A DNA stretch of 64,000 bases from a virus, in UHGV virus genome UHGV-0332176. One strand, given 5' to 3'. Made by a program: the position numbers and the translations under genes. The notes beneath the pieces were generated by a model, which did no database searches, was not told where the DNA came from, and worked only from the letters and a program-made list of their open reading frames with translations. Below, piece after piece: positions 8,284-52,163 of this stretch. Each line of letters starts with the position of its first letter. Position 1 is the first letter of the stretch.

Positions 8284-9302
8284 TAACCAGCAGCAATTGT
8301 CATTCCAGTACGAGTTACTGCTGTTGCTCCTCTAACAACAGATAAAGGTATTTCATTAAATGCTACTGGAAAAACAGGATTTACTAAATTCCCCCATTGT
8401 TCTTTCCAACCATCTGAATAAATTCTATAACCTGTTGTACCTGATTGTTCTTTAATTATATATCTGCTTTGATATGATGAAGCTAAATCTTCCATTGGAT
8501 AATAACGAATAATATTATCAGCATTATCAGAAGCAGTTATAAAATCACCGATTTTTTTACATTTTAATTTATTATGAAATATATTACCAAATTCATTTCC
8601 ATAAGTAATAAAAAATTCTTTATTTTCATTTAACCAAATTTCATATTTCATTAAAGGATAATGAGTTGACCACGCTGTTGTTAAATCAATTATTGTATCA
8701 TTTTCAAACTCAATAAATTTTTTATCTAAAATTTTTTTTAAATGATAACCTGTTTCAATTGGTATATAATATAATAATGTATCACCTTCATTCATTATTG
8801 GTTTATCAGCATAACTAGAAATAATCATATCAAATTCATTCATATAATTTTTAATATGACAAAGATAATGTTTTAATGTTGTTCCAGATGAAGAATCAAT
8901 TCCACCTGCTCCATTTGTATTATATAATAAAGTTGAATATCTTGTTTCATAATTTCCAATATTTAAATCCATTGGTTGAAATTGATATGTAGATGTAATA
9001 TCCCATAATGGATATTTTAAATGAAAATCTTGCTTTTTTGTTTGATTATTATGAAGAAAATAGTCACATATTTTGTCTAAATATGTATAACCTTTTTTAA
9101 TAATTAATTGATTTCCAGAAATTTTTAATGTTAATCCTTTTGAAGAATTTGACAAATTATATTTTTCTGAAATATTAATTGGATTAATAAAAGTTAAATC
9201 GGTTGCATTTTCATTAACTTTTAAAATTCCATTTTCATTAGTTGGAATTGAGCGTTCAAATCTATTAATTTTTACTTTATTAGTCATATTAATATCCTTC
9301 AA
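8262..9302 (-). CDS. tail fibre protein, shared C-terminal module family
   Basis: C-terminus GTTGYRIYSDGWKEQWGNLVNPVFPVAF...GMTIAAGYWFAKGY; overlaps neighbours by 22 and 14 nt, suggesting translational coupling. Confidence 0.55.
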   Translation of the reverse strand: MKDINMTNKVKINRFERSIPTNENGILKVNENATDLTFINPINISEKYNLSNSSKGLTLKISGNQLIIKKGYTYLDKICDYFLHNNQTKKQDFHLKYPLWDITSTYQFQPMDLNIGNYETRYSTLLYNTNGAGGIDSSSGTTLKHYLCHIKNYMNEFDMIISSYADKPIMNEGDTLLYYIPIETGYHLKKILDKKFIEFENDTIIDLTTAWSTHYPLMKYEIWLNENKEFFITYGNEFGNIFHNKLKCKKIGDFITASDNADNIIRYYPMEDLASSYQSRYIIKEQSGTTGYRIYSDGWKEQWGNLVNPVFPVAFNEIPLSVVRGATAVTRTGMTIAAGYWFAKGY

Positions 9303-13820: not shown

Positions 13821-14336
13821 ATGGCATTATATCTCGGAAGTAATGAAGTTTCTCAAAAAGTTTTATTATTAGGTGGAAATAAAAGTGATATAGAAGTTGG
13901 TGATTTATGTTATTCATTAAGAACAGAAAAAGAAGGATGGTTATTATGTGATGGAGCAAGTTATTCAACAACTGATTATCCTGACTTATTTGCTGTAATT
14001 GGTTATACTTTTGGTGGTTCAGAAAATAATTTTAACGTTCCAAATTATAAAGGTAAATTTCTTCAAATGATTAATGATAATCAAACAATAGGTCAAAATA
14101 TTGAAGCTGGTTTGCCTAATATTACAGGTAATTTTAGTGCATATAATAATGCTGGTATAGATACTGCTAATGGGTCATTTTATTTATCTAATGCACAACA
14201 TATAAACTATGCTGGTAGGTCAGAAAGAGATACATATCTTTGTAATTTTGATGTATCTCGTTCTTCTTCAATATATGGAAAATCAAATACAGTACAACCA
14301 CCTGCTTCTATTGTTAATTATTTTATCAAATATTAG
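13821..14336 (+). CDS. phage tail collar domain protein (paralog of 6035..6559)
   Basis: GDLCYSLRTEKEGWLLCDGASYSTTDYPDLFAVIGYTFGG nearly identical to 6035..6559; ends ...PPASIVNYFIKY. Confidence 0.7.
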   Translation: MALYLGSNEVSQKVLLLGGNKSDIEVGDLCYSLRTEKEGWLLCDGASYSTTDYPDLFAVIGYTFGGSENNFNVPNYKGKFLQMINDNQTIGQNIEAGLPNITGNFSAYNNAGIDTANGSFYLSNAQHINYAGRSERDTYLCNFDVSRSSSIYGKSNTVQPPASIVNYFIKY

Positions 14337-14452: not shown

Positions 14453-14519
14453 ATTTATGTATTATTTCAGTCGCAGTCATTTCTGTTGCAAGGATAACTG
14501 TTTCCCCACTAAACATAAA

Positions 14520-14660
14520 AGCATTCATCCGTTAGGATTAAGCAGCAATTACATTATAGTTATAGTTAACGTTTTCGTTAGCATTCATTTTATTTTGAAC
14601 CGATATTGGTGGTATCTCGCCAGGTACATTATAGCCATTTTCAATAATGTTCAAAATTCC
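14520..14660 (-). pseudogene. possible decayed DGR variable-repeat-like remnant (non-coding)
   Basis: On the minus strand ...aatgctaacgaaaacgttaactataactataatgtaattgctgcttaatcctaacgg; its 3' part matches the VR 3' end/IMH region of the DGR target (cttgctgctaatgctaaggg) at ~19/21 positions with one indel; Asn-codon rich; no intact ORF. Confidence 0.3.
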
Positions 14661-14864
14661 GTCCGCCCCTAATACATTGATTTTTCATAATATTTTCCTG
14701 GTGGAGCGGCTGGGAGTTAAACCCAGGTCACTATCATTTACTTTGGGATAATTTATCAGCACCATTCAAAATTATTTATAAATTATTTTATTTTAATTGT
14801 CAATAAAATAATTTAGGACATAAATACAGTTATAAGCAATTCACAAATTTAATAAAGGATTATA

Positions 14865-15668
14865 ATGATATATTATGTTTATCAAATAACAAATAAAATT
14901 AATAATAAAATTTACATTGGAAAAAGAAAATATAAAGGAGAAAATCCTTTATTAGATTCATATATGGGGTCAGGAAAATTAATTAAAGAAGCAATTAAAA
15001 AATATGGAAAAAATAATTTTCAAAAAAATATTATTCAAAGTTTTGATAATGAAAATGATGCTTTTAAATTAGAAAAAGAACTTGTAACAAAAGAATTCTG
15101 TAACAGAAAAGATACTTATAATATTCACGAAGGTGGTACAGGAAGTTTTTCTCACATTAATAATAAACCAATTGAAAAAAGAGAAAATATTATAGCTGTT
15201 AGAAAATTATTAAATTCAGGAGTAAAATTTGGTGGAAAAAAATATTTTACAGAAGAAACTTATCAAAAAATTAGTAATTTTAATAAAGAACGATGGAAAA
15301 CTTGGAAAGAAAAACCAGAATTAATGCCAGATTTTTATATAAAACCTCGTACAGAAAAATTTAAACAACATTTATCAGAAATTTTTAAAGGTCAAAATAA
15401 TCCTAATTTTGGTAAACATTGGTATATTCATAAAAAAGCTATTAATATTAATGAAAAGAAAATGTTTTTTGATAATGAAATACCACAAGGTTTTATTACA
15501 GTAAAAGAATGGAAAGATTTACATAAAAATAAGAAAAATAAAGCATATGGAAAACATTGGTATAATGATGGTAAACAAAATTATTTTTTATCCCCAGATG
15601 ATGAAAAAATTAAAATATTAAGTAAAGGGCGTATTGGTACTCTTTTTAAAAAAATTGAAAGTAATTAG
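14865..15668 (+). CDS. GIY-YIG homing endonuclease (Seg/I-TevI-like)
   Basis: N-terminal IYYVYQITN...KIYIGK (GIY...YIG motifs); C-terminal repeated NPNFGKHWY / AYGKHWYNDGK DNA-binding motifs typical of phage GIY-YIG endonucleases. Confidence 0.8.
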   Translation: MIYYVYQITNKINNKIYIGKRKYKGENPLLDSYMGSGKLIKEAIKKYGKNNFQKNIIQSFDNENDAFKLEKELVTKEFCNRKDTYNIHEGGTGSFSHINNKPIEKRENIIAVRKLLNSGVKFGGKKYFTEETYQKISNFNKERWKTWKEKPELMPDFYIKPRTEKFKQHLSEIFKGQNNPNFGKHWYIHKKAININEKKMFFDNEIPQGFITVKEWKDLHKNKKNKAYGKHWYNDGKQNYFLSPDDEKIKILSKGRIGTLFKKIESN

Positions 15669-15948: not shown

Positions 15949-17298
15949 ATGAAAAGAATTAATAATTTATGGGAAGAATTTACTTCACAAGAACATTGGT
16001 TTGAAGCAAGAAAAAGAGCTTTACGAGGTAAAGTTAAAAAATATTGTGTCAAAGCTATTATGAGAAAAGGTGACGAATATTTAGAAAAAATTCGTCAAGA
16101 TGTTATTAATGGTACTTTTGAATTTAAGGGTTATAAAGAACATACTATTTATGAACCTAAAGAACGTAAAATATTTGTAGCAAGAATTGAAGAAAGAATT
16201 TATCATTGGGCATCAATGATGATTACTGAAAGAATTTTTGAACCAACATTTATATTTGATAGCTATTGTTGCCGTAAAAATAAAGGACAACATAAATGTT
16301 CAGATAAATGCAAAGAAATTGTTAAACATAATAATTATTGTTTAAAATTAGATATTTCTAAATTTTATCCAAATATTAATCATAAAATATTAAAAGAGTG
16401 TTTAGCAAGAAAAATTAAAGATATAAGATTTCTCAATGCTTTATACGCAATTATTGATAGTCATAATAAGGATACTGGAAAAGGTATTCCAATTGGTAAT
16501 TATTCTTCTCAAATTTTTGGAAATATTTATATGACTAAATTAGATATGTTTGTTAAGCACACTTTAAAATGCAAACATTATTTAAGATATTGTGATGATT
16601 TTTGTTTATTTTCAAATGATAAAAAGTATTTAAATTGGTGCAAAGAAAAAATTATTGAATTTGTTACTAATGAATTAGATATGAAATTAAGCAAATGTGA
16701 TTTATTTAAAACTAAACAAGGTGTTGATTTTGTTGGATATAGACATTTTCCTCAATATACTTTAGTTAGAAAAAGAACTGCTAAAAAAGTTAAAAAGAGA
16801 ATGTTAAAAATTCAATATAAATTAAAAAATTATGAATTAACTCAAAAAGAATTATTTAGAATGAATGGGCAAGTTGCCAGCTCATATGGTTGGTGTAAAC
16901 ACGCTGATTCTTATAGATTTATGAAAAAATATAAAATTGAAGAATGTTTAAAGGAGATTATAATGAGATATGCAGAATTTAAAAACAAATTACATACAAA
17001 TAAAATGTTATCAATGAAAATTAATGATTTTATTAATAAAGAAATAACAATAACAGGTTGGGAATATTATAAAAAGAATGATAATAATGAAGATGATAAA
17101 AATAAAGAAGCAGTTAAAACTGTTAAAATACATTTAATATATAATGGTGAAGAAAAAATTATTATAACTAAAGCATCGGTTATTATCAGAGATTTAGAAG
17201 AAATTTCACAATTAGAAAAAGAAGAAAATACAAAGATATTTCCCTTTGATGCAACATTAAAGAAAGATACTAAACGAAATTATTTTTATTTTGAATAA
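15949..17298 (+). CDS. DGR-type reverse transcriptase
   Basis: RT motifs: TIYEPKERKIFVA (motif 1), LKLDISKFYPNI (motif A), GIPIGNYSSQIFGNIYM (DGR-specific IGxxxSQ in place of QGxxxSP), LRYCDDFCLF (YxDD), VDFVGYR; lies between TR and VR; extra ~110-aa C-terminal extension. Confidence 0.9.
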   Translation: MKRINNLWEEFTSQEHWFEARKRALRGKVKKYCVKAIMRKGDEYLEKIRQDVINGTFEFKGYKEHTIYEPKERKIFVARIEERIYHWASMMITERIFEPTFIFDSYCCRKNKGQHKCSDKCKEIVKHNNYCLKLDISKFYPNINHKILKECLARKIKDIRFLNALYAIIDSHNKDTGKGIPIGNYSSQIFGNIYMTKLDMFVKHTLKCKHYLRYCDDFCLFSNDKKYLNWCKEKIIEFVTNELDMKLSKCDLFKTKQGVDFVGYRHFPQYTLVRKRTAKKVKKRMLKIQYKLKNYELTQKELFRMNGQVASSYGWCKHADSYRFMKKYKIEECLKEIIMRYAEFKNKLHTNKMLSMKINDFINKEITITGWEYYKKNDNNEDDKNKEAVKTVKIHLIYNGEEKIIITKASVIIRDLEEISQLEKEENTKIFPFDATLKKDTKRNYFYFE

Positions 17299-17302
17299 AG
17301 AC

Positions 17303-17387
17303 GGGCATCGCAAGGCTGCCCTGTCGTTTGCTATATGACCGCACAAGGCGGTCTAAAAAGAAAAGGATTTGAGTTTTACTCAAATCC
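17303..17387. terminator. three consecutive GC-rich hairpins between the RT stop and the target gene stop (probable bidirectional terminator / DGR VR-proximal hairpins)
   Basis: gggcatcgcaaggctgccc; gaccgcacaaggcggtc; ggatttgag-ttttact-ctcaaatcc (target stop codon lies in the loop of the third hairpin); GC-rich relative to the AT-rich surroundings. Confidence 0.45.
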
Positions 17388-19981: not shown

Positions 19982-20056
19982 ATTTTTATCTTTTAAAAAA
20001 ATAAAAACCTATCAAATTATTTTGATAGGTTTAATATATCAAATAAAATTTATTTG

Positions 20057-20704
20057 TCAAGAAATAAAATTAAATTTTTTCATTAATTTTTCAATATTAG
20101 ACATTTTATTTAGAAAATAATTTTCGTTATAAAAACTACTCCATTCCCAAGTAATATATTTTGTAACAACTCTTTTATGTGGTTTTATTTTACAAAATAA
20201 TTCACGACTGCCATCATTCCAAATAACACGACAATCATCATAAAATGTTCCCGAATTTGCATCAACAAAAAATGTATTGCCATCAAATTTTGTAATTTCA
20301 TATTGATAAATTTCTTCAGTTTCATAATGTAATTTAAATGTATTTAAAGAAACTTCTAACATTAGTTGAGTAAATAACCATTTAAAATTTTTAAATTTTT
20401 CTGATGGAGTTTCTCCTTTTAAAAACTTACGTTTAATAAGTTCTTTTGAATATAAACTATATTTAGATAAAAATTCTTCATATTTTTTAAAATTTTCATT
20501 GGACAAACAATTTAAATAAGGTTGAGCATCTTTTTTATACCAAGTAGAGAGAATATCTAATCCTGTTATACACATATCCATATCAGTATTGATAGATATT
20601 TCTGCTTTCCACTTTATATTTTTTAATTTTCTTTTATAATTTAATGCTCGCAATTTAGACATTAATATATTATCGGAATTATAAATTCTTTTAAAAATAT
20701 TCAT
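20057..20704 (-). CDS. hypothetical protein
   Basis: ORF track. Confidence 0.4.
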   Translation of the reverse strand: MNIFKRIYNSDNILMSKLRALNYKRKLKNIKWKAEISINTDMDMCITGLDILSTWYKKDAQPYLNCLSNENFKKYEEFLSKYSLYSKELIKRKFLKGETPSEKFKNFKWLFTQLMLEVSLNTFKLHYETEEIYQYEITKFDGNTFFVDANSGTFYDDCRVIWNDGSRELFCKIKPHKRVVTKYITWEWSSFYNENYFLNKMSNIEKLMKKFNFIS

Positions 20705-21762: not shown

Positions 21763-21830
21763 AAATTAATACCTCTATATTTTTTATAGAGGTATTATAA
21801 AAAATTTATTTTAACTTGTCAATGATTTTT

Positions 21831-23151: not shown

Positions 23152-23203
23152 TAAATTATTTAAATAAAATATATCATAAAAAAATTATTTGTCAATAGAA
23201 AAA

Positions 23204-33826: not shown

Positions 33827-33913
33827 TGGAAGTCTGGACGAGATTCGAACTCGCATCATCTTTTCAGATATACGGTTTTGCAGACCGCTGTATAGCCATT
33901 CTACCACCAGACT
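33827..33913 (-). tRNA. tRNA with anticodon GCA (Cys-type) but atypically long 17-nt variable arm
   Basis: Acceptor agtctgg/ccagact perfect, anticodon stem gcggt/accgt with loop ctGCAaa, extra arm atatctgaaaagatgat, T-arm gcgag-ttcgaat-ctcgt, encoded CCA; identity uncertain. Confidence 0.55.
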
Positions 33914-33920
33914 TATAAAA

Positions 33921-33995
33921 TGGTACGGTAAGTGAGAATCGAACTCACATATTCAGCTTGGAAGGCTGACGTAATAGCCATTATACCATTACCGC
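33921..33995 (-). tRNA. tRNA-Gly (anticodon UCC)
   Basis: Acceptor gcggtaa/ttaccgt, anticodon stem tcagc/gctga with loop ctTCCaa, T-arm gtgag-ttcgatt-ctcac, encoded CCA. Confidence 0.75.
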
Positions 33996-34000
33996 ATTAA

Positions 34001-34075
34001 TGGAGCGACTTGCGAGAATCGAACTCACATCTAAACCTTGGCAAGGTCTTGTATTAACCATTATACGAAAGTCGC
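34001..34075 (-). tRNA. tRNA-Gly (anticodon GCC)
   Basis: Acceptor gcgactt/aagtcgc perfect, anticodon stem agacc/ggttt with loop ttGCCaa, T-arm gtgag-ttcgatt-ctcgc, encoded CCA. Confidence 0.75.
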
Positions 34076-34081
34076 AAATAT

Positions 34082-34155
34082 TGGCAGGAGCATAGGGATT
34101 TGAACCCCAACAGACAGTTTTGGAGACTGTAATGCTACCGTTACATCATACTCCT
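34082..34155 (-). tRNA. tRNA-Trp (anticodon CCA)
   Basis: Acceptor aggagta/tgctcct (one U-G pair), anticodon stem acagt/actgt with loop ctCCAaa, T-arm tgggg-ttcaaat-cccta, encoded CCA. Confidence 0.7.
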
Positions 34156-36687: not shown

Positions 36688-36771
36688 TTTAATTTCCTTT
36701 CATTAAAAATATCATCATTTGATATTGGTACTATAACATACAAAAATAACTTGTCAAGAACTTTTTTTAAT

Positions 36772-37368
36772 TTATTTTATATTTAATTTTTCTTTTATTT
36801 CTTCCCACGACCAAGGTTCATAATTATGTGTATCAACCCCAATATCCATACAATTGATATTTTGATGTGGCATTAATTTCGTAAAATCAGCTAAATTAAA
36901 TTTTCCGTGAGTATGACCATACAAATGAATTGACCCGTGCCAAGCACAATCCCATTCTGCTATTGGATAATGAGATAATATAATTCTATTGTCATCAATA
37001 ATAATTCGTTTATATGGAACAATTTCTGCCCATACATTTGATAATTGATGTGGTATAAGTTTATCGTGATTACCAATTATTAAATATTTAATACCATTCA
37101 TTTTAGAAAATGTTTGTTGGATTTTATCAGAATTCCAACCCCAACAAACGTCTCCTAAAACATATATAATATCATTTACACCAACTTTTTTATTCCAACG
37201 CTTAATAATTTCTTCATTCATTTGCTGAACAGATGCAAATGGTCTATTTGAATGTCGTATACTATTTGTATGGTCTAAATGTAAATCACTTGTAAAAAAT
37301 ATCATTTTATTCATCACCATACATAATTGGTTCAGCATCATAAAAATAAGTTTCAACCTTATTTTCAA
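36772..37368 (-). CDS. calcineurin-like metallophosphoesterase (small phosphatase/phosphodiesterase)
   Basis: MPP motifs in order: FFTSDLHLDH, VLGDVCWG, IIGNHD, LSHYP, LYGHTHG. Confidence 0.65.
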   Translation of the reverse strand: MKIRLKLIFMMLNQLCMVMNKMIFFTSDLHLDHTNSIRHSNRPFASVQQMNEEIIKRWNKKVGVNDIIYVLGDVCWGWNSDKIQQTFSKMNGIKYLIIGNHDKLIPHQLSNVWAEIVPYKRIIIDDNRIILSHYPIAEWDCAWHGSIHLYGHTHGKFNLADFTKLMPHQNINCMDIGVDTHNYEPWSWEEIKEKLNIK

Positions 37369-38218
37369 CTTTTTTCATAATTGGTAATTGTAATTCTTGA
37401 ACTTCACTACGCATTACCATATTATTTTCAGGTCTTTTATCAGTAGGTATTTTAGATAATGTTTCTTCATCAAGAACTTTCATTACATTAACTCTTTTGA
37501 AATAAGACCCTCTTTTAAGAAATGGTTTAATATCATTAAAATTAATACCTTTTTCTTGAAATAGCATTTCATTCATTTCTGCTGTTGATTTACCTTGTAA
37601 TTCTTTATGACTAAAATTTGCTTGTGCAACCATACTAACAGCATTTCGTGCAGCATCATTTTCTCGCCATACAAAAGCATTAGCTAATTCTATCATATTT
37701 GGTAATTGAAAGACACGACAATCAAAATTTGGTTTAAGATTTTCAACTTTTTCTTTTAATTTCGGATATTTCATACAATTTAAAACAAAAGATACAGTTG
37801 CCATTGATGCAAGAACAGATGTTAATTTAAATAATCTTCCATCAAACGGTGCTTTACTCATATCTTCCCAAGCTAATGAAATTTCATCTGACTGAACATA
37901 TCCAAGTTTTGCATTTGTCTGTTTTACTAAATCTTGACAAACCTCTCTCATAACTGCAACAAATTCCATATCAAATGGTTTATCTAATCCACGACAAAAA
38001 GTATGAAAAGCACGACCATCTAATCTAACATATACAGGTAATCTTGGCATTAACATTGTTGATGTTGTTAATGCTTCATAAGTTTTCATACGGTCTCCCA
38101 AATTATCATTTATCATTTTAATATCCTTTAAATTTACTACAAAAACAAATCCGTTTTTTTCTTCTTTTTTCTCTTTTAAACATTGCAAAATCAATTCTTT
38201 TACAAATTGTATTTTCAA
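37307..38218 (-). CDS. Thg1-like protein (tRNA-His guanylyltransferase family, 3'-5' nucleotidyltransferase); true start probably the internal Met near 38116
   Basis: LPVYVRLDGRAFHTF and YVQSDEISL match the Thg1 catalytic blocks (VRIDGRGFHKF; SDEYSF); the N-terminal 34 aa of the track ORF overlap the upstream gene frame. Confidence 0.65.
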   Translation of the reverse strand: MKIQFVKELILQCLKEKKEEKNGFVFVVNLKDIKMINDNLGDRMKTYEALTTSTMLMPRLPVYVRLDGRAFHTFCRGLDKPFDMEFVAVMREVCQDLVKQTNAKLGYVQSDEISLAWEDMSKAPFDGRLFKLTSVLASMATVSFVLNCMKYPKLKEKVENLKPNFDCRVFQLPNMIELANAFVWRENDAARNAVSMVAQANFSHKELQGKSTAEMNEMLFQEKGINFNDIKPFLKRGSYFKRVNVMKVLDEETLSKIPTDKRPENNMVMRSEVQELQLPIMKKVENKVETYFYDAEPIMYGDE

Positions 38219-39160: not shown

Positions 39161-39283
39161 TGTTATAATCTTTCATTATTTGTTATTGATAAAGTTAATA
39201 TAACATAGAAGAATTATTTGTCAATAGAAAAAAATAAAAAATCCAAGAATTTTTCTTGGATTTTTATAAAATATATTAATTTT

Positions 39284-39595: not shown

Positions 39596-42500
39596 TTATT
39601 CAATAATAATATTATTTTTTCCACGTAAATAATCAATAGTTATCAAAATTGTTCCTGCTGTTGAAACTTGAATAACAGGTAAAGAACCTGCGTCATTTCC
39701 AACAGGAATAAATTTTGTAATTAACTGCATATTTTCATCTAACAATTCCAAATATAATGTATAATCTGAAAAATTATATTCTAATGTATAATCAGAATCA
39801 TCATCAATAATTTCAAAAGTTGTTGGGTCAACTTTCTGTAAATCTCTTTCAAAATTAAATACATATTCAAAACCTGTTTCAGGAATTACCATCCAATATG
39901 AAGGATTAAATAATTCGTGAGCATCATTTGAAGTATGTGCTTGTTTACATTGATAATATCTATCTTGATAAGCAACTTTATCATCAACTTGATATTGAGT
40001 TGCTGTTACCCAATTTTGATAATAACTTGAATTAATATCACGTTTAGTAACGTCTAATATATTTCTATTAAATAATAGGCGAGCTGAATCTTCATTATTA
40101 CTTGCTACAATAGAAATATATTTAATATCTTTTAAATCAACCGTTAAACCAGTATCTGAATCTTTACCTTGTTTATAAACATCTTCCCACATAGAAATTT
40201 TACCAGTACGTCCTGCATCTTCATCAAATGATGTTGATGAAGTATGTGCTTGACTACACATATAATAATATGTTGATGTTACTCCATCATATTCTTCATC
40301 GTGTTTTATAATATCACCAACTGCATAATATAAATTTGGTTCCCAAGTTAAAGTATTTTCATTAATTTTATTAACTATTGAATAAAATGGTCGTCTAATA
40401 TTAAATGATAATTGTTTTAAATTTACGAAATCTCCATAAATTCCTTTATCAAAAAAGATAATAGGGATTCTTGTTTTCATAATTGTTTGAATAGCTTGAT
40501 AATCAATACCAACACGATTTTCTGTTGATGCTAATTTATTAACATATTCAACGTTTGGAATAGCATCATTATCTGAAGCAATTCTTTCGGCATATGATAA
40601 ATTAGTGTGTGTAGAATCATCAATAACTAAATAATTATCACGAGTTGTTTGAAATGTGATTTTTTGACCACTTTCATAGCTACGAATAACATTACCATTT
40701 AAGTCCAGAGCTTTATTTAATAAAACAGATGGAGTATAATAATTTACTAATTGCCAATATTCAGCATTATTTGTGGTAATATCAGTTGATGAAGTGTGTT
40801 CTTTTAAACAAATATAAATATTATAACCAATTTCAAAAGGTATTTGAACATAATCATTAACATTATATGTTACACCAACTTCCCAAGTTGAATAAGATGC
40901 ATTATTTCCACCAAGTTCTAAATGTCCATAAAAACCAGAACCTAATTCAACATCTCCTGTTAAATTTGTACCACTTATTGTAACTTTATTATTATTAGAA
41001 GCATCTCCTTGTTCAATTGTAATACCATTAGTTAATGGACGAACAACTTCTTTTCCATCAATAATTTCAGTATTATATAATCCTTTAACTAAATCATCCC
41101 CATTTGGAGTAGCTAAATAATCTAAAAATACCCATTTTGGTTGATAAAAATCAAATTGATAGATTCTTTTGGAACTCATTTCAGGGTCTAATGTGTCAAT
41201 ATTATTTAATGTTGAATTATTTGTAAAACGAGTAGCAATTGTATTACTTTCTGTAACGTTTTTATCAAATAAAGAATTAATAAATGTTAAATATTCAGTT
41301 CTTTCGCTTAAAGTAATAATAGATTTTCCTAATGAACAATTACTAAATCTATTTCCAATAAATGAACCATTTGAAGTTTTATTATTTTCATTATAAGAAG
41401 TTATATTAATTGCTTGATTTGTAATATCTTTAAATAAGCAATTATTAAATAAAAACCAACTTAAATTATTTGAAATATTTACACCATTTCTAGCATTTTC
41501 AAAAATGCAATTAAAGAAATGTACATAAGAAGAATCTTGTAAACCTTGTGATTTAAAAATATTAACTAATGTTGAACCATTACCATTTTGTATATCAGAA
41601 TAACCAATGAATTTAACATTTCTAAACCAAACATCATATGTTGAACCTAACAATAAAACAGTTTCTAATGTACTTTCAGACACATCAAAAGTCATATCTT
41701 CAACAATAATATTGTGTGCAATTTCTCCATTAACACCATATTTGTTTGTTGATGATAAATCACTTAAAACATAATTACTATCTAATGTTGTTAATAAAAC
41801 ATTCAAACCATTTTCATAACTATTTGTTTTAATAATAGTTCTATCAATTCCTTCACCTTTTAAATGAATACCAGTTGGTAATGCTAATGGTTTAGAATTA
41901 ATAATATATTCACCAGCAGGAACTAACATTGTTTTGAAGCAATCAGGTTTATTATCTGCACAATAAACAGTTAATATAGCATTATAAAAAGCATCTGAAT
42001 CATCAGTTGTTCCATCGCCCAATACACCAAAATTTTTAACTGAACAATAATCATCTAAAACTTCTTGAATTGTTCTATCAGAAGGTGGTGTAGCATTTTC
42101 TGTATAACTTGGTTCAGTTGTAATACCAATAATATCAAGAATTCCACCTTGTTCTTGACCTTCACCATTTTCTAAAACAAGTGTTTCTCCATTGCTAATA
42201 ATTTGAATTTTTCCACCTTCAACAACTTGTGCTTTAACACCTAAATTTAAAGAATTTATTTTATCACAAAATCCTTGAGCATCTGTTTCTTTATCAAATG
42301 TAATTGTTTGACCATTTATAACAATTGTTGTTCCAGCTGGAATAGATGGATACAATTTGGAACCTGTTACAATTATAGGTAATTTACTACCATTACCATT
42401 TGAATAAACATATTTAATCATATCCAAATTATCACTAAATTCAGTTAAAACCTGAATATTACCATATGGAAATGTATTAGATTGAATTCTTTCTTTTAAT

Positions 42501-42640
42501 TTTGGATTATTTGGATTACCAATAAACAAACTATTAGTATCAGTTGCTAAACCAAATTCACCTTCGTGTAAATCTGTTAATTCACTTTGATTACCACGTC
42601 TATGTTGTATTAATGCAATTTGTTTTGTATTTTTTGCCAT
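39596..42640 (-). CDS. tailspike / tail fibre with pectate-lyase-like beta-helix (depolymerase-type) domain and three C-terminal CBM5/12-like modules
   Basis: SVKNFGVLGDGTTDDSDAFYNAI (classic N-terminal motif of right-handed beta-helix tailspikes/polysaccharide lyases); the three W....Y..GD.V.......Y.C...HTS modules are detailed in the CBM5/12 finding. Confidence 0.7.
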   Translation of the reverse strand: MAKNTKQIALIQHRRGNQSELTDLHEGEFGLATDTNSLFIGNPNNPKLKERIQSNTFPYGNIQVLTEFSDNLDMIKYVYSNGNGSKLPIIVTGSKLYPSIPAGTTIVINGQTITFDKETDAQGFCDKINSLNLGVKAQVVEGGKIQIISNGETLVLENGEGQEQGGILDIIGITTEPSYTENATPPSDRTIQEVLDDYCSVKNFGVLGDGTTDDSDAFYNAILTVYCADNKPDCFKTMLVPAGEYIINSKPLALPTGIHLKGEGIDRTIIKTNSYENGLNVLLTTLDSNYVLSDLSSTNKYGVNGEIAHNIIVEDMTFDVSESTLETVLLLGSTYDVWFRNVKFIGYSDIQNGNGSTLVNIFKSQGLQDSSYVHFFNCIFENARNGVNISNNLSWFLFNNCLFKDITNQAINITSYNENNKTSNGSFIGNRFSNCSLGKSIITLSERTEYLTFINSLFDKNVTESNTIATRFTNNSTLNNIDTLDPEMSSKRIYQFDFYQPKWVFLDYLATPNGDDLVKGLYNTEIIDGKEVVRPLTNGITIEQGDASNNNKVTISGTNLTGDVELGSGFYGHLELGGNNASYSTWEVGVTYNVNDYVQIPFEIGYNIYICLKEHTSSTDITTNNAEYWQLVNYYTPSVLLNKALDLNGNVIRSYESGQKITFQTTRDNYLVIDDSTHTNLSYAERIASDNDAIPNVEYVNKLASTENRVGIDYQAIQTIMKTRIPIIFFDKGIYGDFVNLKQLSFNIRRPFYSIVNKINENTLTWEPNLYYAVGDIIKHDEEYDGVTSTYYYMCSQAHTSSTSFDEDAGRTGKISMWEDVYKQGKDSDTGLTVDLKDIKYISIVASNNEDSARLLFNRNILDVTKRDINSSYYQNWVTATQYQVDDKVAYQDRYYQCKQAHTSNDAHELFNPSYWMVIPETGFEYVFNFERDLQKVDPTTFEIIDDDSDYTLEYNFSDYTLYLELLDENMQLITKFIPVGNDAGSLPVIQVSTAGTILITIDYLRGKNNIIIE

Positions 42641-42742: not shown

Positions 42743-43339
42743 TTAAGTTAAATCAATCCCTAATTCTTTGGCTTTATTTAGTAATTGAACTCTATTATAA
42801 CATTTCATTCTTTTTAAAATATTTGTTATATGAACTTTAACAGTAGATTCTGAAATATTCAATTCATATGCTATCTGTTTATTAGATAAACCTTTATTGA
42901 TTAATTTAATAACATCAATCTGCTTATTTGTTACAATTTTCTTAAATGAATTAATTACTAAATTATTTGGAAAGTATGTTTCATTTAATAAAATCAAATT
43001 AATAATGTTAAAAATTTTATCATTGGAATACTTTTTAGAAATATATCCAGCAACATTATATCTCATATAATTAACTATATCAGTTGAAATATATTCTGAT
43101 GTTAAAATAATTAATTTACCATTTAAATTTTGTTTTTGAAAAAATGATAAAATAGTTAAAATATCAATTTTTGGAGTTTTTGTAATAAAAATCAAATCAT
43201 ATTGGTTAGATAGAATATTATTTTTGATATTATTATAATCACAGCAAGCATTAATTTCACAATTTTCATCAATATGTGTTAATAATTCTTTTAATCCTGT
43301 AATATACAGTTCTTCATCATCTATTATAAGTATTTTCAT
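42743..43339 (-). CDS. two-component response regulator, NarL/FixJ (LuxR-type HTH) family
   Basis: N-terminal receiver-like domain MKILIIDDEE...YDLIFIT...LTSEY...K; C-terminal LuxR HTH LSNKQIAYELNISESTVKVHITNILKRM. Confidence 0.65.
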   Translation of the reverse strand: MKILIIDDEELYITGLKELLTHIDENCEINACCDYNNIKNNILSNQYDLIFITKTPKIDILTILSFFQKQNLNGKLIILTSEYISTDIVNYMRYNVAGYISKKYSNDKIFNIINLILLNETYFPNNLVINSFKKIVTNKQIDVIKLINKGLSNKQIAYELNISESTVKVHITNILKRMKCYNRVQLLNKAKELGIDLT

Positions 43340-47861: not shown

Positions 47862-48323
47862 ATGGAAAATCAAATTACAAAAAATTTTACTTTAGCTGAA
47901 TTAACATATTCTGATACAGCAAATATTAAAAAAATACCAAATATTCCAACAGAAATTGAATATAATAATATGAAAAATTTATGTGAAAATGTTTTACAAC
48001 CATTAAGAGATGCATTAAAAAAACCAATAAGAGTTAATTCTTGTTACCGTGGAAAACAATTAAATGAAGCCGTTGGTGGTTCTAAAACATCTCAACATTG
48101 TAAAGGTCAAGCTGCTGATATTGAAATTATTGGTATGAGTAATTATGATTTAGCTTGTTATATACGTGATAATTTTGATTTTGACCAATTAATTTTGGAA
48201 TTTACAGATAATATTAAAAACGATATTAATGCTGGTTGGGTTCACGTATCTTATGTATCACCAATAGCAAATCGTAAGCAATGTTTAACTATTAATAAAT
48301 CAGGAACAAAACTTGGTTTTTAA
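47862..48323 (+). CDS. peptidase M15 family (zinc D-Ala-D-Ala carboxypeptidase-like; endolysin or virion-associated lysin)
   Basis: SCYRGKQLNEAVGGSKTSQHCKGQAADIEI matches the Peptidase_M15 R...N..GG...S.H..G.A.D zinc-binding signature. Confidence 0.7.
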   Translation: MENQITKNFTLAELTYSDTANIKKIPNIPTEIEYNNMKNLCENVLQPLRDALKKPIRVNSCYRGKQLNEAVGGSKTSQHCKGQAADIEIIGMSNYDLACYIRDNFDFDQLILEFTDNIKNDINAGWVHVSYVSPIANRKQCLTINKSGTKLGF

Positions 48324-48706
48324 TAACCACATACATACCACATACAAGTATTTTGTCCATTGTTTCTCATACAACAAACTACAGAATTAGTTGTAAATTG
48401 TTGAAATGTATAACCATTAACATATGGGTCTTGACCAGTATGTCCAATTTCTGATTGGGTTATTGTATAATTAATTGTTGTATAAGGTTTTTTAAAATTA
48501 ATAGTTATATTTACATCATTACCAGTAACTCGTCCACCTTGCTCAATCCACCCATCTGACCACACACGATACCATTCAGTTCCTTCTGACCAGGTTTCAA
48601 TTATATATCTTCTATTTTCTAAATTAGTTAATCTTGTATTAATTTCATCTAATTTATTTAATAATTCATCAACACGTGAAATAGGTAATTTACTTGTATC
48701 TGTCAT
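48320..48706 (-). CDS. small fibre-associated protein (paralog of 6599..7003)
   Basis: Identical N-terminal 60 aa to 6599..7003; ends ...CMWYVCGY. Confidence 0.5.
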   Translation of the reverse strand: MTDTSKLPISRVDELLNKLDEINTRLTNLENRRYIIETWSEGTEWYRVWSDGWIEQGGRVTGNDVNITINFKKPYTTINYTITQSEIGHTGQDPYVNGYTFQQFTTNSVVCCMRNNGQNTCMWYVCGY

Positions 48707-48718
48707 ATTTTATCCTTT

Positions 48719-48741
48719 ATTTCTATTTAATAAATAGAAAT
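48719..48741. promoter_or_regulatory. palindromic element atttctatttaataaatagaaat upstream of 48320..48706
   Basis: Same inverted repeat as at 6564..6586 (reverse complement). Confidence 0.45.
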
Positions 48742-48744
48742 AAA

Positions 48745-48780
48745 CAATTAAAAACCGCCTTTAATAGGCGGTTTTTATAA
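48745..48780 (-). terminator. rho-independent terminator after groEL (aaaccgcctattaaaggcggttttt on minus strand)
   Basis: GC stem plus T-run. Confidence 0.55.
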
Positions 48781-48793
48781 ATAATTAAGTATT

Positions 48794-50431
48794 TTACATA
48801 TTAGGTGTATTTTGTCTTATTGCTGACATTAACTTTAAATTAGTTTCAGTATCATCAATAATTAATCCTTCAACCGTTAATAATGAACCTGCAATTGAAG
48901 ACCCATTTTCCAAAGCACAACGAACAACTTTGGTTGCATCTAAAATACCTGCATCAACTAAATTACAGAATTTATCGCATTTAGCATCATATCCCCAAGA
49001 ATAATCATCATTATCTAATACTTTTTCAACAATGACTTCACCAGATTTTCCAGCATTTTCTGCAATTTTTTTCATTGGAGCACTTAAAGATTTTAATACA
49101 ATTTCATATCCAACATTTTCATCATCTGTTATAACAATATTATTTAATTCCTTAATAAGGTCTTTTTGTGCTCTTACTAATGATACTCCACCACCAGGTA
49201 AAATACCTTCTTCTAATGCTGCTCTCGTTGCACAAACGGCATCATCAACACGGTCTTTCTTTTCTTTAACTTCTGTTTCAGTTGCTCCACCAACTTTAAT
49301 AACAGCAACACCGCCAATTAATTTAGCAAGTCTTTCACGAAGTTTTTCTTTATCATATGATGAATCAGTATTTTCAATTTCTTCAGAAATTTGTTTTGCT
49401 CTTTCATCAATAGCTTCTTTACTTCCGTGTCCACCAATAATAATTGTTTCAGTTGGTGTAATTCTAATTTTATCGCAAGAACCCAAATCATCAATAGTTA
49501 CTTTTTCTAATTGAGCACCAAATTGAGTTGAAATAAAATTACCACCTGTTAAAATTGCAATATCTTCCATTTGAAATCTACGAATATCACCAAATGAAGG
49601 AGCTTTAACAGCACAAACTTTTAATCCTGCTTTAATTCTATTAATAACCAATGCTGATAATGGGTCATCTGCCATTTCATCGGCAATCATAATTAATGGA
49701 CGACCAATTTCCATAACATTTTCTAACAAAGGAATAATAGATTGAAGATTGTTAATTTTACCATCATATAAGAAAATATATGGATTATCATACTCAACTA
49801 ATTGTCTTTCTGGATTAGTCATAAAATATGGTGAAAGATAACCTTGGTCAAATTGTAAACCATCAACAATTTCTAATTCTGTCTTTAATCCCTTTGCTTC
49901 TTCAACAGTAACTACACCTTTTTCACCAACAACTTCAATTGCTTTAGCAATAAAATCACCAATTTCTGTATCACCATTTGCAGAAATAGTTGCCAATTGA
50001 CGAATTTCTTCATTTGTTGTTACTTTTTTTGAATGTGATTTTAATGATTCAACTACAACCTTAACTGCATTTGAAATACCTTTTTGAATTTCAGTAGATT
50101 TACGACCTTTAGAAATTGACTTTAAACCTTCTTCAGCAATTGTAGATGCAATTATACAAGTTGCTGTTGTACCATCACCTGCATCTCTACCAGTTTTTTC
50201 AGATGCTTGAATAATCATTTTTGCACCTTCACCTTCAGAGTCCATTAGTGTAACAGATTTTGCAACAGTTACACCATCTTTTGTAACTTTTGGTGAACCC
50301 CAAGATTGTTGAATAGCAATTGTTCTACCAGCAGGACCAGCAGTAGCAGAAACAACATCTGCAACTGTTTTCATACCAGAATATAACGTACTACGAGCTT
50401 CATCACCTTTAATTACTTTTTTAATTGTCAT
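48794..50431 (-). CDS. groEL: chaperonin GroEL (Cpn60)
   Basis: 545 aa; AALEEGILPGGGVSL equatorial-domain signature, DDAVCATRAALEEG, GDGTTTA; collinear with GroEL throughout. Confidence 0.9.
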   Translation of the reverse strand: MTIKKVIKGDEARSTLYSGMKTVADVVSATAGPAGRTIAIQQSWGSPKVTKDGVTVAKSVTLMDSEGEGAKMIIQASEKTGRDAGDGTTATCIIASTIAEEGLKSISKGRKSTEIQKGISNAVKVVVESLKSHSKKVTTNEEIRQLATISANGDTEIGDFIAKAIEVVGEKGVVTVEEAKGLKTELEIVDGLQFDQGYLSPYFMTNPERQLVEYDNPYIFLYDGKINNLQSIIPLLENVMEIGRPLIMIADEMADDPLSALVINRIKAGLKVCAVKAPSFGDIRRFQMEDIAILTGGNFISTQFGAQLEKVTIDDLGSCDKIRITPTETIIIGGHGSKEAIDERAKQISEEIENTDSSYDKEKLRERLAKLIGGVAVIKVGGATETEVKEKKDRVDDAVCATRAALEEGILPGGGVSLVRAQKDLIKELNNIVITDDENVGYEIVLKSLSAPMKKIAENAGKSGEVIVEKVLDNDDYSWGYDAKCDKFCNLVDAGILDATKVVRCALENGSSIAGSLLTVEGLIIDDTETNLKLMSAIRQNTPNM

Positions 50432-50503
50432 AATTATTTTTTCTCCTTAACTTAAATTTATTTTTAATAATAACAAAAATTTTATAATTTTACAAAAATA
50501 ATT

Positions 50504-50818
50504 TTAATGTATAATACCTAAAATATCTGTTTCTCTTAAAATTGTTTTTTCTTCATCGTTTAATTTAATAATTTGACCTGCAAATTTTCCAAATAAAACT
50601 CTATCTCCAACTTTAACTGTCATTGGTTGAATTTTTCCTGTTTCTTCATTATATAAACCATTTCCACACGCAATTACAACACCTGTTGATGGTTTTTCTT
50701 TTGCATTATCAGGAATAATAATTCCGCCGTTAGAAACACTTTTTTCTTCATCTTTTTCAATAACAACGAAATTAAATAAAGGTTGAATTTCTAATTTTTT
50801 TTCCATTTTTTTCTCCAT
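50504..50818 (-). CDS. groES: co-chaperonin GroES (Cpn10)
   Basis: 104 aa; I.PL.NFVVIEK.E....S.GGIIIPD.AKEKP..G.V.A.G.G pattern typical of Cpn10; directly upstream of groEL. Confidence 0.85.
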   Translation of the reverse strand: MEKKMEKKLEIQPLFNFVVIEKDEEKSVSNGGIIIPDNAKEKPSTGVVIACGNGLYNEETGKIQPMTVKVGDRVLFGKFAGQIIKLNDEEKTILRETDILGIIH

Positions 50819-50886
50819 AAAAAATAAGCTAACTTGTTTGTTAGCTTATTATATAGGAGAATAAAAATAATTGTCAAAAATAAAAA

Positions 50887-51441
50887 TTAATTTTTTATTT
50901 CAAAACCCATTGTTGATAAATCAAAATCATCAGATGGAGATTTCATAAATGTTTGATTTGATAAATTTAATTCATCATCTATTAACATATTTTTATAATT
51001 ATTATATACTCGTTCAAAGTATGTAATTAATTGTTCTCTGCACGGAAATTTTTTATATTTTCTAAAGAATATAGATAATTTTGGTAAAATAAATTCTTCA
51101 TCAAATTTCATAAAACAATTATTCTTAATATAAACATTATTACCTGTTGTTGTCAAATAAAATAAAGGAATAATAAATTTATAATCAACAATAAACTTAT
51201 GAAATCTTGAACCATAAATACTTCCTTTTCCATAACGACCAAGACCAAATTGAATTTTAATATTAGTTGTCTGAAAAACTTCACAAATAATTTCATTAAT
51301 TAAATCAAGTTTTTCCTGTGATATAAGTTTAGATAAATTTTTATATTTCTGGTTCGTTTTATAAGCAGTTTTAAATTTTATTTTATTAAAATATTTTGAC
51401 CCATCATATTTATTATGCCATATATTCTTAATTTTTAACAT
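50887..51441 (-). CDS. hypothetical protein
   Basis: ORF track. Confidence 0.4.
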   Translation of the reverse strand: MLKIKNIWHNKYDGSKYFNKIKFKTAYKTNQKYKNLSKLISQEKLDLINEIICEVFQTTNIKIQFGLGRYGKGSIYGSRFHKFIVDYKFIIPLFYLTTTGNNVYIKNNCFMKFDEEFILPKLSIFFRKYKKFPCREQLITYFERVYNNYKNMLIDDELNLSNQTFMKSPSDDFDLSTMGFEIKN

Positions 51442-51519
51442 ATTTAGTAACTTTCATAAAAAAATTAGCACCATTGCTGATGCTAATTTATGATTAAATT
51501 TTTAATTTGTCAAGTATTT

Positions 51520-51795
51520 TTAACATAATCTTGTATAAGTAATTGTTGAATCAAGCGAATCAACCATTGAAGAATCAATATTTAGATTAATTAAATCTGA
51601 ATAGAAACCATCTTCATCTTCAATTTCAAAATTTTCAATTGTGTCCAAATCCATTTCTGTTTCATCATCATCAAAAGTATCCATTAAAAATTCTTTAAGG
51701 GTAACATTTTCAGAAGATTCAACTCCTTCGCTGTTATCTGTAATATTATAAATTTGGTTAAGTTGTTCGTTAGAAATAGTAAGAGTTTTAGTCAT
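51520..51795 (-). CDS. hypothetical acidic protein
   Basis: ORF track. Confidence 0.35.
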   Translation of the reverse strand: MTKTLTISNEQLNQIYNITDNSEGVESSENVTLKEFLMDTFDDDETEMDLDTIENFEIEDEDGFYSDLINLNIDSSMVDSLDSTITYTRLC

Positions 51796-52086: not shown

Positions 52087-52163
52087 TAAAGTTTCCTTTC
52101 ATAAAAAAATTAGCACCATTGCTGATGCTAATATAAAAGAAAATATTTGTCAATAAAAATACA

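Follow-up and report, generated by a model that had tools for sequence, protein, structure and literature searches.

Phages that encode both GroEL and GroES are a recognised class in the literature (PMC5649160, PMC7185714), and the initial annotation of the locus described here, which held complete GroEL genes in phages to be rare, was right in proportion only (236 out of 50,697 phage records, contaminated ones included). Among aquatic phages, viral GroES>GroEL operons (Marine et al. 2017, ISME J, PMC5649160) lie in large dsDNA phage genomes, their GroELs fall into viral clades apart from cellular GroEL, and their inferred role is the folding of viral proteins. An adjacent groES>groEL pair is also annotated in Flavobacterium phage vB_FspM_immuto, and in Bacteroides phage SJC03 an 87-aa Cpn10-like ORF lies directly upstream of GroEL; immuto and the Bacteroides phages SJC03/DAC19-23 have large, myovirus-size genomes of 160-180 kb. 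Pseudomonas phage EL has a chaperonin with about 22% identity to GroEL; no co-chaperonin is known for it, and it fails to bind GroES (PMC7185714). According to work cited in PMC5649160, the roof hairpin is missing from the co-chaperonins T4 gp31 and RB49 CocO.

How does a GroES-GroEL pair from the human gut compare with these systems? The pair lies in a 64,000-nt stretch of viral genome UHGV-0332176 (the window), which derives from a jumbo phage of the human gut that has not been cultivated and whose genome is about 270-290 kb in size, with 25% GC. We describe its genes, expression signals, lineage and unusual residues, and then return to the comparison.

Results

The groES and groEL genes and their products

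Both genes are on the minus strand, in the bacterial order groES>groEL, and are separated by a 72-nt spacer. The groEL gene (48794..50431) encodes a group I chaperonin (Cpn60) of 545 aa that is matched over its full length by Pfam, PHROG and PDB entries. Pfam Cpn60_TCP1 (PF00118) aligns with residues 23-526 at 1.8e-70 (model 1-488/490), phrog_5725 'chaperonin groEL' matches at 7.4e-148, and solved GroELs align end to end (8wuw, 6.9e-155; E. coli 1aon, 6.4e-141), so that the equatorial, intermediate and apical domains are all covered. The groES gene, encoding a Cpn10 co-chaperonin, occupies 50504..50818 if read from its first ATG (104 aa) or 50504..50806 if read from its second (100 aa), and its product matches Pfam Cpn10 (PF00166; 6.6e-28, model 2-93/93) and phrog_3188 'co-chaperonin GroES' (1.9e-24). 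Gene callers run on metagenomes, like database clusters, take the second ATG as the start, and GGAG lies 7 nt upstream of it; GroES therefore probably starts at 50806 and is 100 aa long rather than 104 aa. Chance is not an issue for the identity of either protein, given full-length matches to two ancient families, and the tandem of full-length genes proposed in the initial annotation holds, the probable GroES start apart.

The phage GroEL is 44.7% identical to Salmonella GroEL and keeps the ATP-site residues D52, D87-G88-T89-T90, I150/S151, D398, G415/G416 and I493/D495; the sole change in the GDGTT loop, T91A, is clade-wide. At the apical surface that binds substrate and GroES, seven of nine positions are identical (Y199, S201, Y203, F204, L237, L259, V263) and the remaining two are conservatively replaced (L234I, V264I). 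The phage GroES, 38% identical to its Salmonella counterpart, has an intact mobile loop, SNGGIIIPD, in which Gly precedes three hydrophobic residues, as well as a roof hairpin with the roof segment GNGLYNEETGKIQPM. Measured against the relative L097, whose GroEL is 82% identical, dN/dS is 0.26 for groEL and 0.12 for groES; both ratios are upper bounds, since the Nei-Gojobori method with Jukes-Cantor correction underestimates dS at 9% GC3. These ratios indicate that groEL and groES are under purifying selection.

Promoter, terminator and upstream hairpin

A sigma-70-type promoter, TTGACA-N18-TATAAT, lies at 50848..50877 on the minus strand, and the end of its -10 hexamer is 29 nt upstream of the first groES ATG. 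It matches the consensus at 12/12 positions, and is one of only two such sites in the 64-kb window. Three relatives (L007, L009 and L008) have a TTGACA/TTGAAA-N17-TAT(A/T)AT site 28-30 nt before the groES ATG. Within the spacer, a groEL ribosome-binding site, AAGGAG (50443..50448, minus strand), can be read from the sequence 11 nt before the ATG. Beyond groEL, 17 nt after its stop codon, lies an intrinsic terminator, AAAAACCGCCT-ATTAA-AGGCGGTTTTT followed by a T-rich tail (48749..48777, minus strand). Its 12 pairs fold at -16.7 kcal/mol (z = -4.7; as stable in 0 of 200 shuffles), which bears out the earlier claim that the pair has a terminator of its own, and equivalent hairpins follow groEL in L007 and L009.

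Another stem-loop, of 11 pairs with a T-run (50823..50850, minus strand; -12.3 kcal/mol, z = -6.1), overlaps the -10/+1 region of the groES promoter and probably serves to terminate the 184-aa gene upstream. Transcription starting at the groES promoter would yield an RNA without part of the left arm of this stem-loop, an arrangement that would resemble the 'promoter-early stem-loop' of T4. The groES promoter is a member of a family of repeated promoter cassettes (repeats D8 and D12), and its layout of promoter plus hairpin is repeated at 21822, 20060 and 36757. An HrcA/CIRCE-regulated heat-shock groESL operon was considered and rejected: the CIRCE inverted repeat, TTAGCACTC-N9-GAGTGCTAA, has no match with three or fewer mismatches anywhere in the window, and the hairpin upstream of groES is unrelated to it in sequence.

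Genome context and the nature of the replicon

Genes for tail, tail-fibre and tail-collar proteins, an endolysin, a clamp loader, a DnaB-type helicase, a primase, a dNMP kinase and a SegE-like endonuclease are found in the window, together with six tRNAs. The pair had been described as sitting among structural genes, and this stands only in part: one nearby ORF has a weak 'virion structural protein' match, but most neighbours have no assigned function, one is an M15 endolysin, and the primase and DnaB helicase are at a distance of 5-9 kb. The fibre paralog said to adjoin the pair is indeed there, a 128-aa ORF (48320..48706) that is 55% identical to 6599..7003 and has its C-terminus in common with the tail-fibre-like ORFs 7000..8283 and 8262..9302. 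Searches of Pfam and PHROG gave nothing usable for the neighbouring 184-aa, 91-aa, 604-aa and 182-aa ORFs, nor did a Pfam scan of the 69-aa ORF. The 184-aa ORF, which is directly upstream of groES, belongs to no Pfam or PHROG family, HSP20 included; it has five database homologues only, and AlphaFold2 on that shallow alignment gave a pLDDT of 37.5. Near a reverse transcriptase ORF in the window there is no DGR template/variable repeat pair, the direct repeats being gene paralogs or promoter cassettes that lack adenine-specific mismatches. A permuted tmRNA of the alpha type occurs elsewhere in the window.

Could the replicon be something other than a phage? Its 25% GC, contigs of about 270-290 kb, tRNAs, tmRNA and groESL would also suit a megaplasmid or a tiny-genome symbiont, AT-rich, 200-300 kb in size and typically retaining groESL. 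That reading is extremely unlikely in view of the tail, tail-fibre, tail-collar and virion structural matches, the endolysin, the phage-type replication genes and the SegE-like homing endonuclease in the window; most ORFs, moreover, belong to no family at all, cellular housekeeping families are absent among the approximately 45 ORFs scanned, and IMG/VR classes the relatives as viral genomes.

A different concern is that a bacterial groESL segment has been mis-joined to a phage contig. The GroEL gene is universal in bacteria, several GroEL-bearing 'phage' records are plainly bacterial or unverified (Salmonella WGS, UNVERIFIED_ORG), and the total GC of groEL (31.7%) exceeds the window mean (25%). 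However, this excess lies at codon positions 1 and 2 and so reflects amino-acid composition, whereas at 8.6% the GC3 of groEL and groES equals the phage background (9.1 +/- 2.8% for window ORFs of at least 150 aa). Independent contigs from human-gut metagenomes, 202,823-288,161 bp long, carry the identical GroEL within the same 20-kb gene neighbourhood (24 contigs were read; the protein has entries in 481 blocks of the index), and assemblies from different samples agree in junctions and neighbours. Furthermore, groESL is flanked by the phage's own types of promoter and terminator cassette, and no cellular genome was found with a GroEL more than 54% identical. The initial annotation had seen no sign of host contamination or a chimera, and on these data the chance of either is negligible.

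Lineage and origin of the pair

Conservation in related phages, which the initial annotation had proposed as a check, extends far: the groES>groEL pair is present in relatives at 82%, 70%, 67% and 54% GroEL identity, and the upstream block of 148/182/604/184-aa ORFs is retained down to 67%. In IMG/VR, the relative at 82% is found on two viral contigs (286,782 and 206,094 bp). When 24 kb of the window was compared with the phage collection at the DNA level, the sole match was a stretch of 166 bp inside groEL, and hence the phage has no described close relative. Against the nearest relative, groEL has about 82% nucleotide identity compared with about 90% for the flanking genes; it is unusual for the GroEL family that the gene diverges more than its neighbours.

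In an exhaustive HMMER search, a clade representative scored 742 bits and anything else no more than 573 bits; the best full-length single-domain protein outside the clade (553 bits, 51% identity) is, by a look-up of names for ten representatives, a Roseomonas GroEL. A neighbour-joining (NJ) tree places the GroELs of this lineage in a separate 68-tip clade (bootstrap 77/100), and its star-like backbone, with internal branches of 0.002-0.02, resolves no cellular sister group. Among cellular proteins, identity reaches at most 54% for GroEL (Azospirillum/Rhodospirillales) and 55-58% for GroES, for which the named matches include Alphaproteobacteria MAGs at 53-55%. A contig scan for cellular GroELs chose its candidates by peptide patterns taken from the query, and its all-alphaproteobacterial match list is for that reason biased.

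Has the phage, then, lately acquired the groESL of its current host, as an auxiliary operon that would mirror the host and reveal little about phage biology? The bacterial gene order has been kept, the best cellular matches of both proteins belong to one class, the Alphaproteobacteria, and an alpha-type permuted tmRNA is present in the same window. Yet even the nearest cellular proteins are distant, at the identities given above, the codon composition is fully ameliorated, and the clade groups with the Alphaproteobacteria alone in 0/100 bootstraps. Moreover, clade GroELs diverge to about 45-54% identity, yet the pair stays on phage contigs of 200-390 kb. Recent capture is thus highly unlikely, and on the question raised by the initial annotation, whether the pair is host-derived or of a phage lineage, the sequence comparisons support the latter. 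Most likely the operon was captured as a unit from a bacterium long ago and then evolved within the phage lineage. An alphaproteobacterial origin is suggested by best-hit ranking only, since the NJ tree resolves no cellular sister; the alpha-type tmRNA, taken together with the affinities of groES and groEL to Alphaproteobacteria, suggests that the host may be a gut alphaproteobacterium.

Altered allosteric and ring-ring positions

Compared with E. coli/Salmonella GroEL, the window GroEL carries the replacements R197Q, D83R, K327P, T91A, A109K, R452K, E461S and S463E, and retains E386 and V464. When residues were counted in 100 clade and 224 other GroEL sequences, position 197 was Q/N in 95/100 clade members and R/K in 189/224 others, position 83 was K/R/N in 90/100 and D/E in 186/224, and position 327 was P/Q in 92/100 and K in 188/224. 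In the phosphate loop, T91 is replaced by A/N in 86/100 clade sequences, while T is found in 213/224 others; A109 is K in 67 and E461 is S in 71 of the 100 clade sequences, and S463 is E/D in the clade. In E. coli GroEL, R197 forms an allosteric inter-subunit salt bridge with E386, and D83 forms another with K327, which the clade changes remove; positions 109, 452, 461 and 463 belong to the ring-ring interface. The window protein ends ...LKLMSAIRQNTPNM, without C-terminal GGM repeats, and the clade relatives have Met/Gln/Pro-rich C-terminal tails that likewise lack GGM repeats. This absence does not bar membership of the GroEL family, because other accepted GroELs, phage ones included, are without GGM.

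Clade GroELs may, on the basis of these replacements, cycle differently from E. coli GroEL. An unlikely but not far-fetched extension, compatible with a functional chaperonin pair, is that the fold and partner are unchanged but the allostery is rewired, which would entail weaker or absent stabilisation of the T state, altered or lost communication between the two rings, and possibly single-ring cycling as in mitochondrial Hsp60 and the OBP/AR9 chaperonins. The clade-wide changes at R197, D83, K327, A109, E461 and T91 point in this direction, as do the loss of the GGM tail and the retention of R197 and K327 in other phage GroELs (SJC03, immuto). However, the roles of these residues are established for E. 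coli GroEL only, positions 386, 452 and 464 are kept or conservatively changed (E386, R452K, V464), and a cognate GroES with a normal mobile loop favours a conventional capped cycle. More speculative still is a reading that joins these points to the lineage: a distinct group I offshoot, derived from an old alphaproteobacterial capture, in which the R197-E386 and D83-K327 switches would have disappeared and the contacts between rings been remodelled, and which with its own GroES might form a weakly cooperative, perhaps single-ring, fast-cycling chamber tuned to very large phage structural proteins.

Discussion

The locus is, with high probability, a functional, phage-owned group I chaperonin system, encoded by a bicistronic groES-groEL operon of a gut jumbo phage. 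Transcription by host sigma-70 RNA polymerase would start at the operon's consensus promoter and run to the terminator behind groEL, probably in the early or middle phase of infection; the early timing is read from the promoter consensus only. The steps that would follow are inferred from conservation. GroEL would form rings of seven subunits, whose conserved hydrophobic apical surface would bind non-native proteins; GroES would close the ring by way of its GGIII mobile loop, with ATP hydrolysis (D52, D87, D398 and the GDGTT loop) powering the cycle of encapsulation and release. The clients are likely to be proteins of the phage itself that are large or fold slowly, such as those of capsid, tail or fibre. 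As the initial annotation reasonably proposed, the phage would not have to rely on the host chaperonin, and its folding capacity would be independent of how much host GroEL/ES is present and how compatible it is. After the capture from a bacterium, the clade would have acquired its own changes at allosteric and ring-ring positions.

What does the pair add? A complete, self-promoted GroES/GroEL has been kept through deep divergence in a widespread gut jumbo-phage lineage, and this retention suggests that chaperonin self-sufficiency is a stable trait of the lineage and not an accidental pick-up. The clade offers a natural set of GroEL variants without the classic allosteric salt bridges, useful for studies of chaperonin mechanism, and the combination of alphaproteobacterial affinities with an alpha-type tmRNA gives a testable hypothesis about the host. 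The general picture of phage chaperonins is unchanged by it.

The E. coli/Salmonella GroEL-GroES paradigm (1AON) is matched in domain architecture, ATP-site and apical residues, mobile loop, roof and operon order, at the modest identities given above; the phage differs in having no GGM tail on its GroEL, no CIRCE operator and a plain sigma-70 consensus promoter. The co-chaperonin-independent class typified by EL (EL gp146, OBP gp246, AR9 gp228) was rejected as a home for the present GroEL, which is 45-54% identical to bacterial GroEL and has groES adjacent. T4 gp31 and RB49 CocO are likewise a phage answer to a chaperonin-dependent assembly step, but T4 and RB49 provide only a substitute for GroES and use the host GroEL, whereas the present phage encodes both proteins and its GroES is canonical. 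The cultured phages immuto and SJC03/DAC19-23 also have GroES-GroEL pairs, but their GroELs are only 44-49% identical to the present one; those of immuto and SJC03 keep R197, K327 and T91, which the present clade does not, and the SJC03 GroES lacks the roof hairpin that is found here. The operons of Marine et al. 2017 have the same canonical order in a similar genomic setting and GroELs that likewise stand apart; those operons are from virioplankton, unlike the present pair from a human-gut jumbo-phage lineage, and in the GroES>GroEL clusters of PMC5649160 the mobile-loop glycine, kept here, is reported to be Asn/Ser. A further point of difference is the 184-aa ORF next to groES in the present phage, which matches neither HSP20 nor any other Pfam or PHROG family. 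In the adjacency of its genes, its phage context and the separation of its GroEL from cellular GroEL, the pair fits the viral GroES>GroEL operon class. It is a further example of the phage GroES>GroEL operons already documented (Marine 2017; PHROG families; immuto) and not a new kind of system.

Results

The minus-strand pair that the initial annotation called GroES-GroEL is present as described, with groES at 50504..50818 and groEL at 48794..50431. The 545-aa GroEL covers nearly the entire Pfam Cpn60_TCP1 model (1.8e-70), matches the PHROG family 'chaperonin groEL' (7.4e-148) and aligns along its full length to bacterial GroELs of known structure (best 6.9e-155; E. coli 1AON 6.4e-141), and GroES matches Pfam Cpn10 (6.6e-28) and the PHROG family 'co-chaperonin GroES' (1.9e-24) and can be aligned with solved Cpn10s. 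The GroES length first given, 104 aa, counts from the first ATG; it is most likely 100 aa, because the second ATG (50806) has GGAG 7 nt upstream and is the start chosen by metagenome gene callers and database clusters. The nucleotide-site residues are all kept in GroEL (E. coli numbering: D52, D87, G88, T89, T90, I150, S151, D398, G415, G416, I493 and D495), the apical residues that bind substrate or the GroES loop are identical at Y199, S201, Y203, F204, L237, L259 and V263 and conservatively replaced at L234I and V264I, and GroES has the roof hairpin and a mobile loop reading SNGGIIIPD, compared with SAGGIVLTG in E. coli. Comparison with an 82%-identical relative gives dN/dS values of 0.26 (GroEL) and 0.12 (GroES), both upper bounds because of saturation at 9% GC3. 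The operon is genuine, intact and long maintained in the phage. GroES is 124-127 aa in many relatives (e.g. 5604..5987 in contig L007 and 5599..5982 in L009), with its own good RBS and a conserved N-terminal extension of ~30 aa, MKVGYTIYDxEKTIKLTSAPENGWNVVFEGFDT, that has no counterpart in the window GroES or in cellular GroES.

A minus-strand promoter at 50848..50877 (TTGACA-N18-TATAAT) ends 29 nt upstream of the first ATG of groES and is one of two sigma-70 sites in the 64 kb window that match the consensus at 12 of 12 positions. The terminator attributed to the pair is a 12-pair, G+C-cored hairpin followed by a T-run (48777..48749, minus strand; -16.7 kcal/mol, z = -4.7). All three inspected relatives have a near-consensus promoter 28-30 nt upstream of groES, two have terminators 3' of groEL, and no CIRCE operator was found in the window. 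The groES promoter belongs to a minus-strand sigma-70 family (20033..20060, 21794..21822, 23168..23195, 36730..36757, 39197..39224 and 50848..50877) with 11-12 of 12 matches, whose members are all intergenic, 17-52 nt 5' of minus-strand gene starts; several are directly followed by a hairpin, and part of the family consists of conserved repeat cassettes (repeat D8). This family suggests that many window genes are read by host RNA polymerase. Two 53-nt direct repeats on the same strand (51451..51503 and 52096..52148, 89% identical), each with a TTGACA promoter-like site overlapped by the hairpin TTAGCATCAGCAATGGTGCTAA, flank ORFs of 69 and 91 aa, and exactly these two ORFs are absent from the otherwise syntenic contig L003 and from L097, an IMG/VR relative. 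The pattern resembles insertion or deletion mediated by cassettes of the T4 'promoter-early stem-loop' type.

The replicon is an uncultivated jumbo phage. The exact GroEL with identical neighbours occurs on independent contigs (202,823-288,161 bp) from human-gut metagenomes, and in IMG/VR two viral contigs (286,782 and 206,094 bp) encode a GroEL that is 82% identical to it; no DNA-level relative of the window was found among 50,697 phage records. The window encodes tail, tail-fibre and tail-collar proteins, a virion structural protein match, an M15 endolysin, a clamp loader, a DnaB-type helicase, a primase, a dNMP kinase, a DNA methyltransferase, a Thg1-like enzyme, a SegE-like GIY-YIG endonuclease and six tRNA genes. 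A bacterium, plasmid or reduced symbiont is ruled out by these phage genes and by the lack of any match to a cellular housekeeping family among the ~45 ORFs scanned. That the pair sits among structural genes is only partly right: structural matches do exist in the window, but the majority of its ORFs have no match at all and others encode lytic or replication functions. Host contamination or a chimera, for which an abrupt compositional shift would speak, is likewise rejected. GC is 25% throughout the window and slightly higher in groEL (31.7%), but GC3 is 8.6% for groEL and groES vs 9.1 +/- 2.8% across the 44 window ORFs of at least 150 aa, so that the excess, confined to codon positions 1 and 2, reflects amino-acid composition. 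The groESL junctions are reproduced across independent assemblies, and the signals on either side of the pair belong to repeated cassettes of the phage itself.

When 5.8 billion proteins were searched by word index, near-identical copies were followed by a graded series of GroEL relatives from 87% to ~53% identity, many on 200-390 kb contigs, with named cellular GroELs (Bradyrhizobium, Azospirillum) only at 51-53%. In an exhaustive HMMER comparison with 1.84 billion cluster representatives, the one that represents the related jumbo-phage GroELs scored 742 bits and nothing else exceeded 573 bits; among single-domain matches over the full length, the top one was a Roseomonas GroEL (553 bits, 51% identity). 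A neighbour-joining tree was built from 248 sequences (this clade, 80 genome-derived GroELs, ~125 unbiased representatives, and phage and bacterial references). In it the window GroEL falls in a 68-tip clade (stem 0.10, bootstrap 77/100), with a star-like backbone and no supported cellular sister. By pairwise identity the best cellular GroEL is alphaproteobacterial (54%, Azospirillum/Rhodospirillales), as is the best cellular GroES (55-58%; among the named matches, Alphaproteobacteria MAGs at 53-55%). As to whether the pair is host-derived or of phage lineage, the phylogeny favours the latter, and conservation in related phages is borne out by a Cpn10 gene upstream of the Cpn60 gene in all three relatives inspected (GroEL 67%, 70% and 54%; 260-270 kb contigs), the 54% relative having a 119-aa ORF between the two. 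Relatives down to 67% GroEL identity also keep the 148-, 182-, 604- and 184-aa genes as a block upstream; the genes downstream of groEL vary. From these comparisons we conclude that the operon is an old resident of this jumbo-phage lineage; it may plausibly have been captured from an alphaproteobacterium long ago. Against L097, nucleotide identity is 65-90% across 48250..51550, a segment spanning the 184-aa gene, groES-groEL and the 128-aa gene, with groEL (~82%) uniformly lower than the flanking genes (~90-93%). That the chaperonin segment is more diverged than its flanks is unusual for so conserved a family, and fits either faster evolution or mosaicism through an allele exchange that took in the whole stretch between and including the 184-aa and 128-aa genes.

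The 'fibre paralog' noted beside the pair holds up: ORF 48320..48706 (128 aa, minus strand) is 55% identical to 6599..7003 (plus strand), has a C-terminal domain that recurs in the tail-fibre-like ORFs 7000..8283 and 8262..9302, and gives a weak match to the C-terminal end of a virion structural protein family. This fibre-tip-like pair (128/134 aa) also has an upstream hairpin-plus-RBS cassette in common, and a second duplicated pair of small fibre-associated genes, 6035..6559 and 13821..14336 (plus strand), encodes tail-collar-domain proteins and is 95% identical over 128 nt. A complete NarL/LuxR-type response regulator (42743..43339, minus strand; receiver domain and GerE helix-turn-helix) lies directly upstream of the gene for a 1014-aa putative fibre protein, pectate-lyase-like/Mtd_N-like (39596..42640); in contig L006 the regulator is truncated to its HTH part. 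A Thg1-like tRNA-His guanylyltransferase (37307..38218, minus strand; phrog_4717, 6.9e-82) lies near tRNA genes (Cys, Gly-tcc, Gly-gcc and Trp at 33827..34155, Leu at 31438, Arg at 21831). A permuted, two-piece tmRNA gene (14469..14807, minus strand) matches Rfam alpha_tmRNA RF01849 (77.4 bits; gathering 50, full model) and tmRNA_permuted RF04321 (87.5 bits), with no ARAGORN report, and its tag reading frame encodes ANENVNYNYNVIAA*. It and a SegE-like GIY-YIG/NUMOD3 endonuclease (14865..15668) adjoin a 449-aa reverse transcriptase ORF (15949..17298, plus strand; phrog_1423, 1.8e-101; Pfam RVT_1, 1.3e-15), for which neither a group II intron RNA (Rfam) nor a DGR-type template/variable repeat was found; the kilobase after it (17001-18000) has the highest GC of the window, 0.338.

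Discussion

How might a complete chaperonin serve this phage? Host sigma-70 RNA polymerase would transcribe groES-groEL, probably before late morphogenesis; GroEL rings would capture non-native phage proteins, GroES would cap the ring, and ATP hydrolysis would time release. Candidate clients are the capsid protein, whose gene lies outside the window, and large fibre- or adhesin-like proteins, which are encoded near the operon in every relative. Putative independence of the phage from the host chaperonin is plausible. The alpha-type tmRNA, together with the alphaproteobacterial best matches of both chaperonin genes, suggests an alphaproteobacterial host.

In E. coli GroEL, the R197-E386 and D83-K327 salt bridges stabilise the closed T conformation and are the basis of cooperativity, and the ring-ring interface holds A109, R452, E461 and S463. 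Among 100 clade members compared with 224 other GroELs, R197 is Q/N in 95 (R/K in 189 of the others), D83 is K/R/N in 90 (D/E in 186), K327 is P/Q in 92 (K in 188) and T91 is A/N in 86 (T in 213). Likewise, A109 is K in 67 (A in 154), E461 is S in 71 (D/E in 155), S463 is E/D in 86 (S/A in 127) and F44 is W in 88 (F in 115), and the GGM tail is missing from the clade. The GroELs of phages SJC03 and immuto, unlike the clade, keep R197 and K327. Clade-wide replacements against this background suggest, at the level of sequence, altered allostery in the clade.

The system offers a modestly interesting clade-specific residue signature and, from groESL and tmRNA, a host clue. Complete GroEL genes had been called rare in phages; proportionally they are, but the trait is well known. 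Of the 50,697 records of isolate phages, 236 match the window GroEL and 33 match its GroES, some of these records being contaminated. Among cultured phages, Flavobacterium phage immuto has an annotated GroES-GroEL pair and Bacteroides phage SJC03 a Cpn10-like ORF upstream of GroEL, and GroES>GroEL operons have been described as common in virioplankton (Marine et al. 2017, PMC5649160). The window operon adds to already known phage groESL systems. It is unlike the EL/OBP/AR9 chaperonins, whose identity to GroEL is ~22% and which lack a co-chaperonin, and whereas phages of the T4 gp31 type supply the co-chaperonin only, this phage encodes both subunits.
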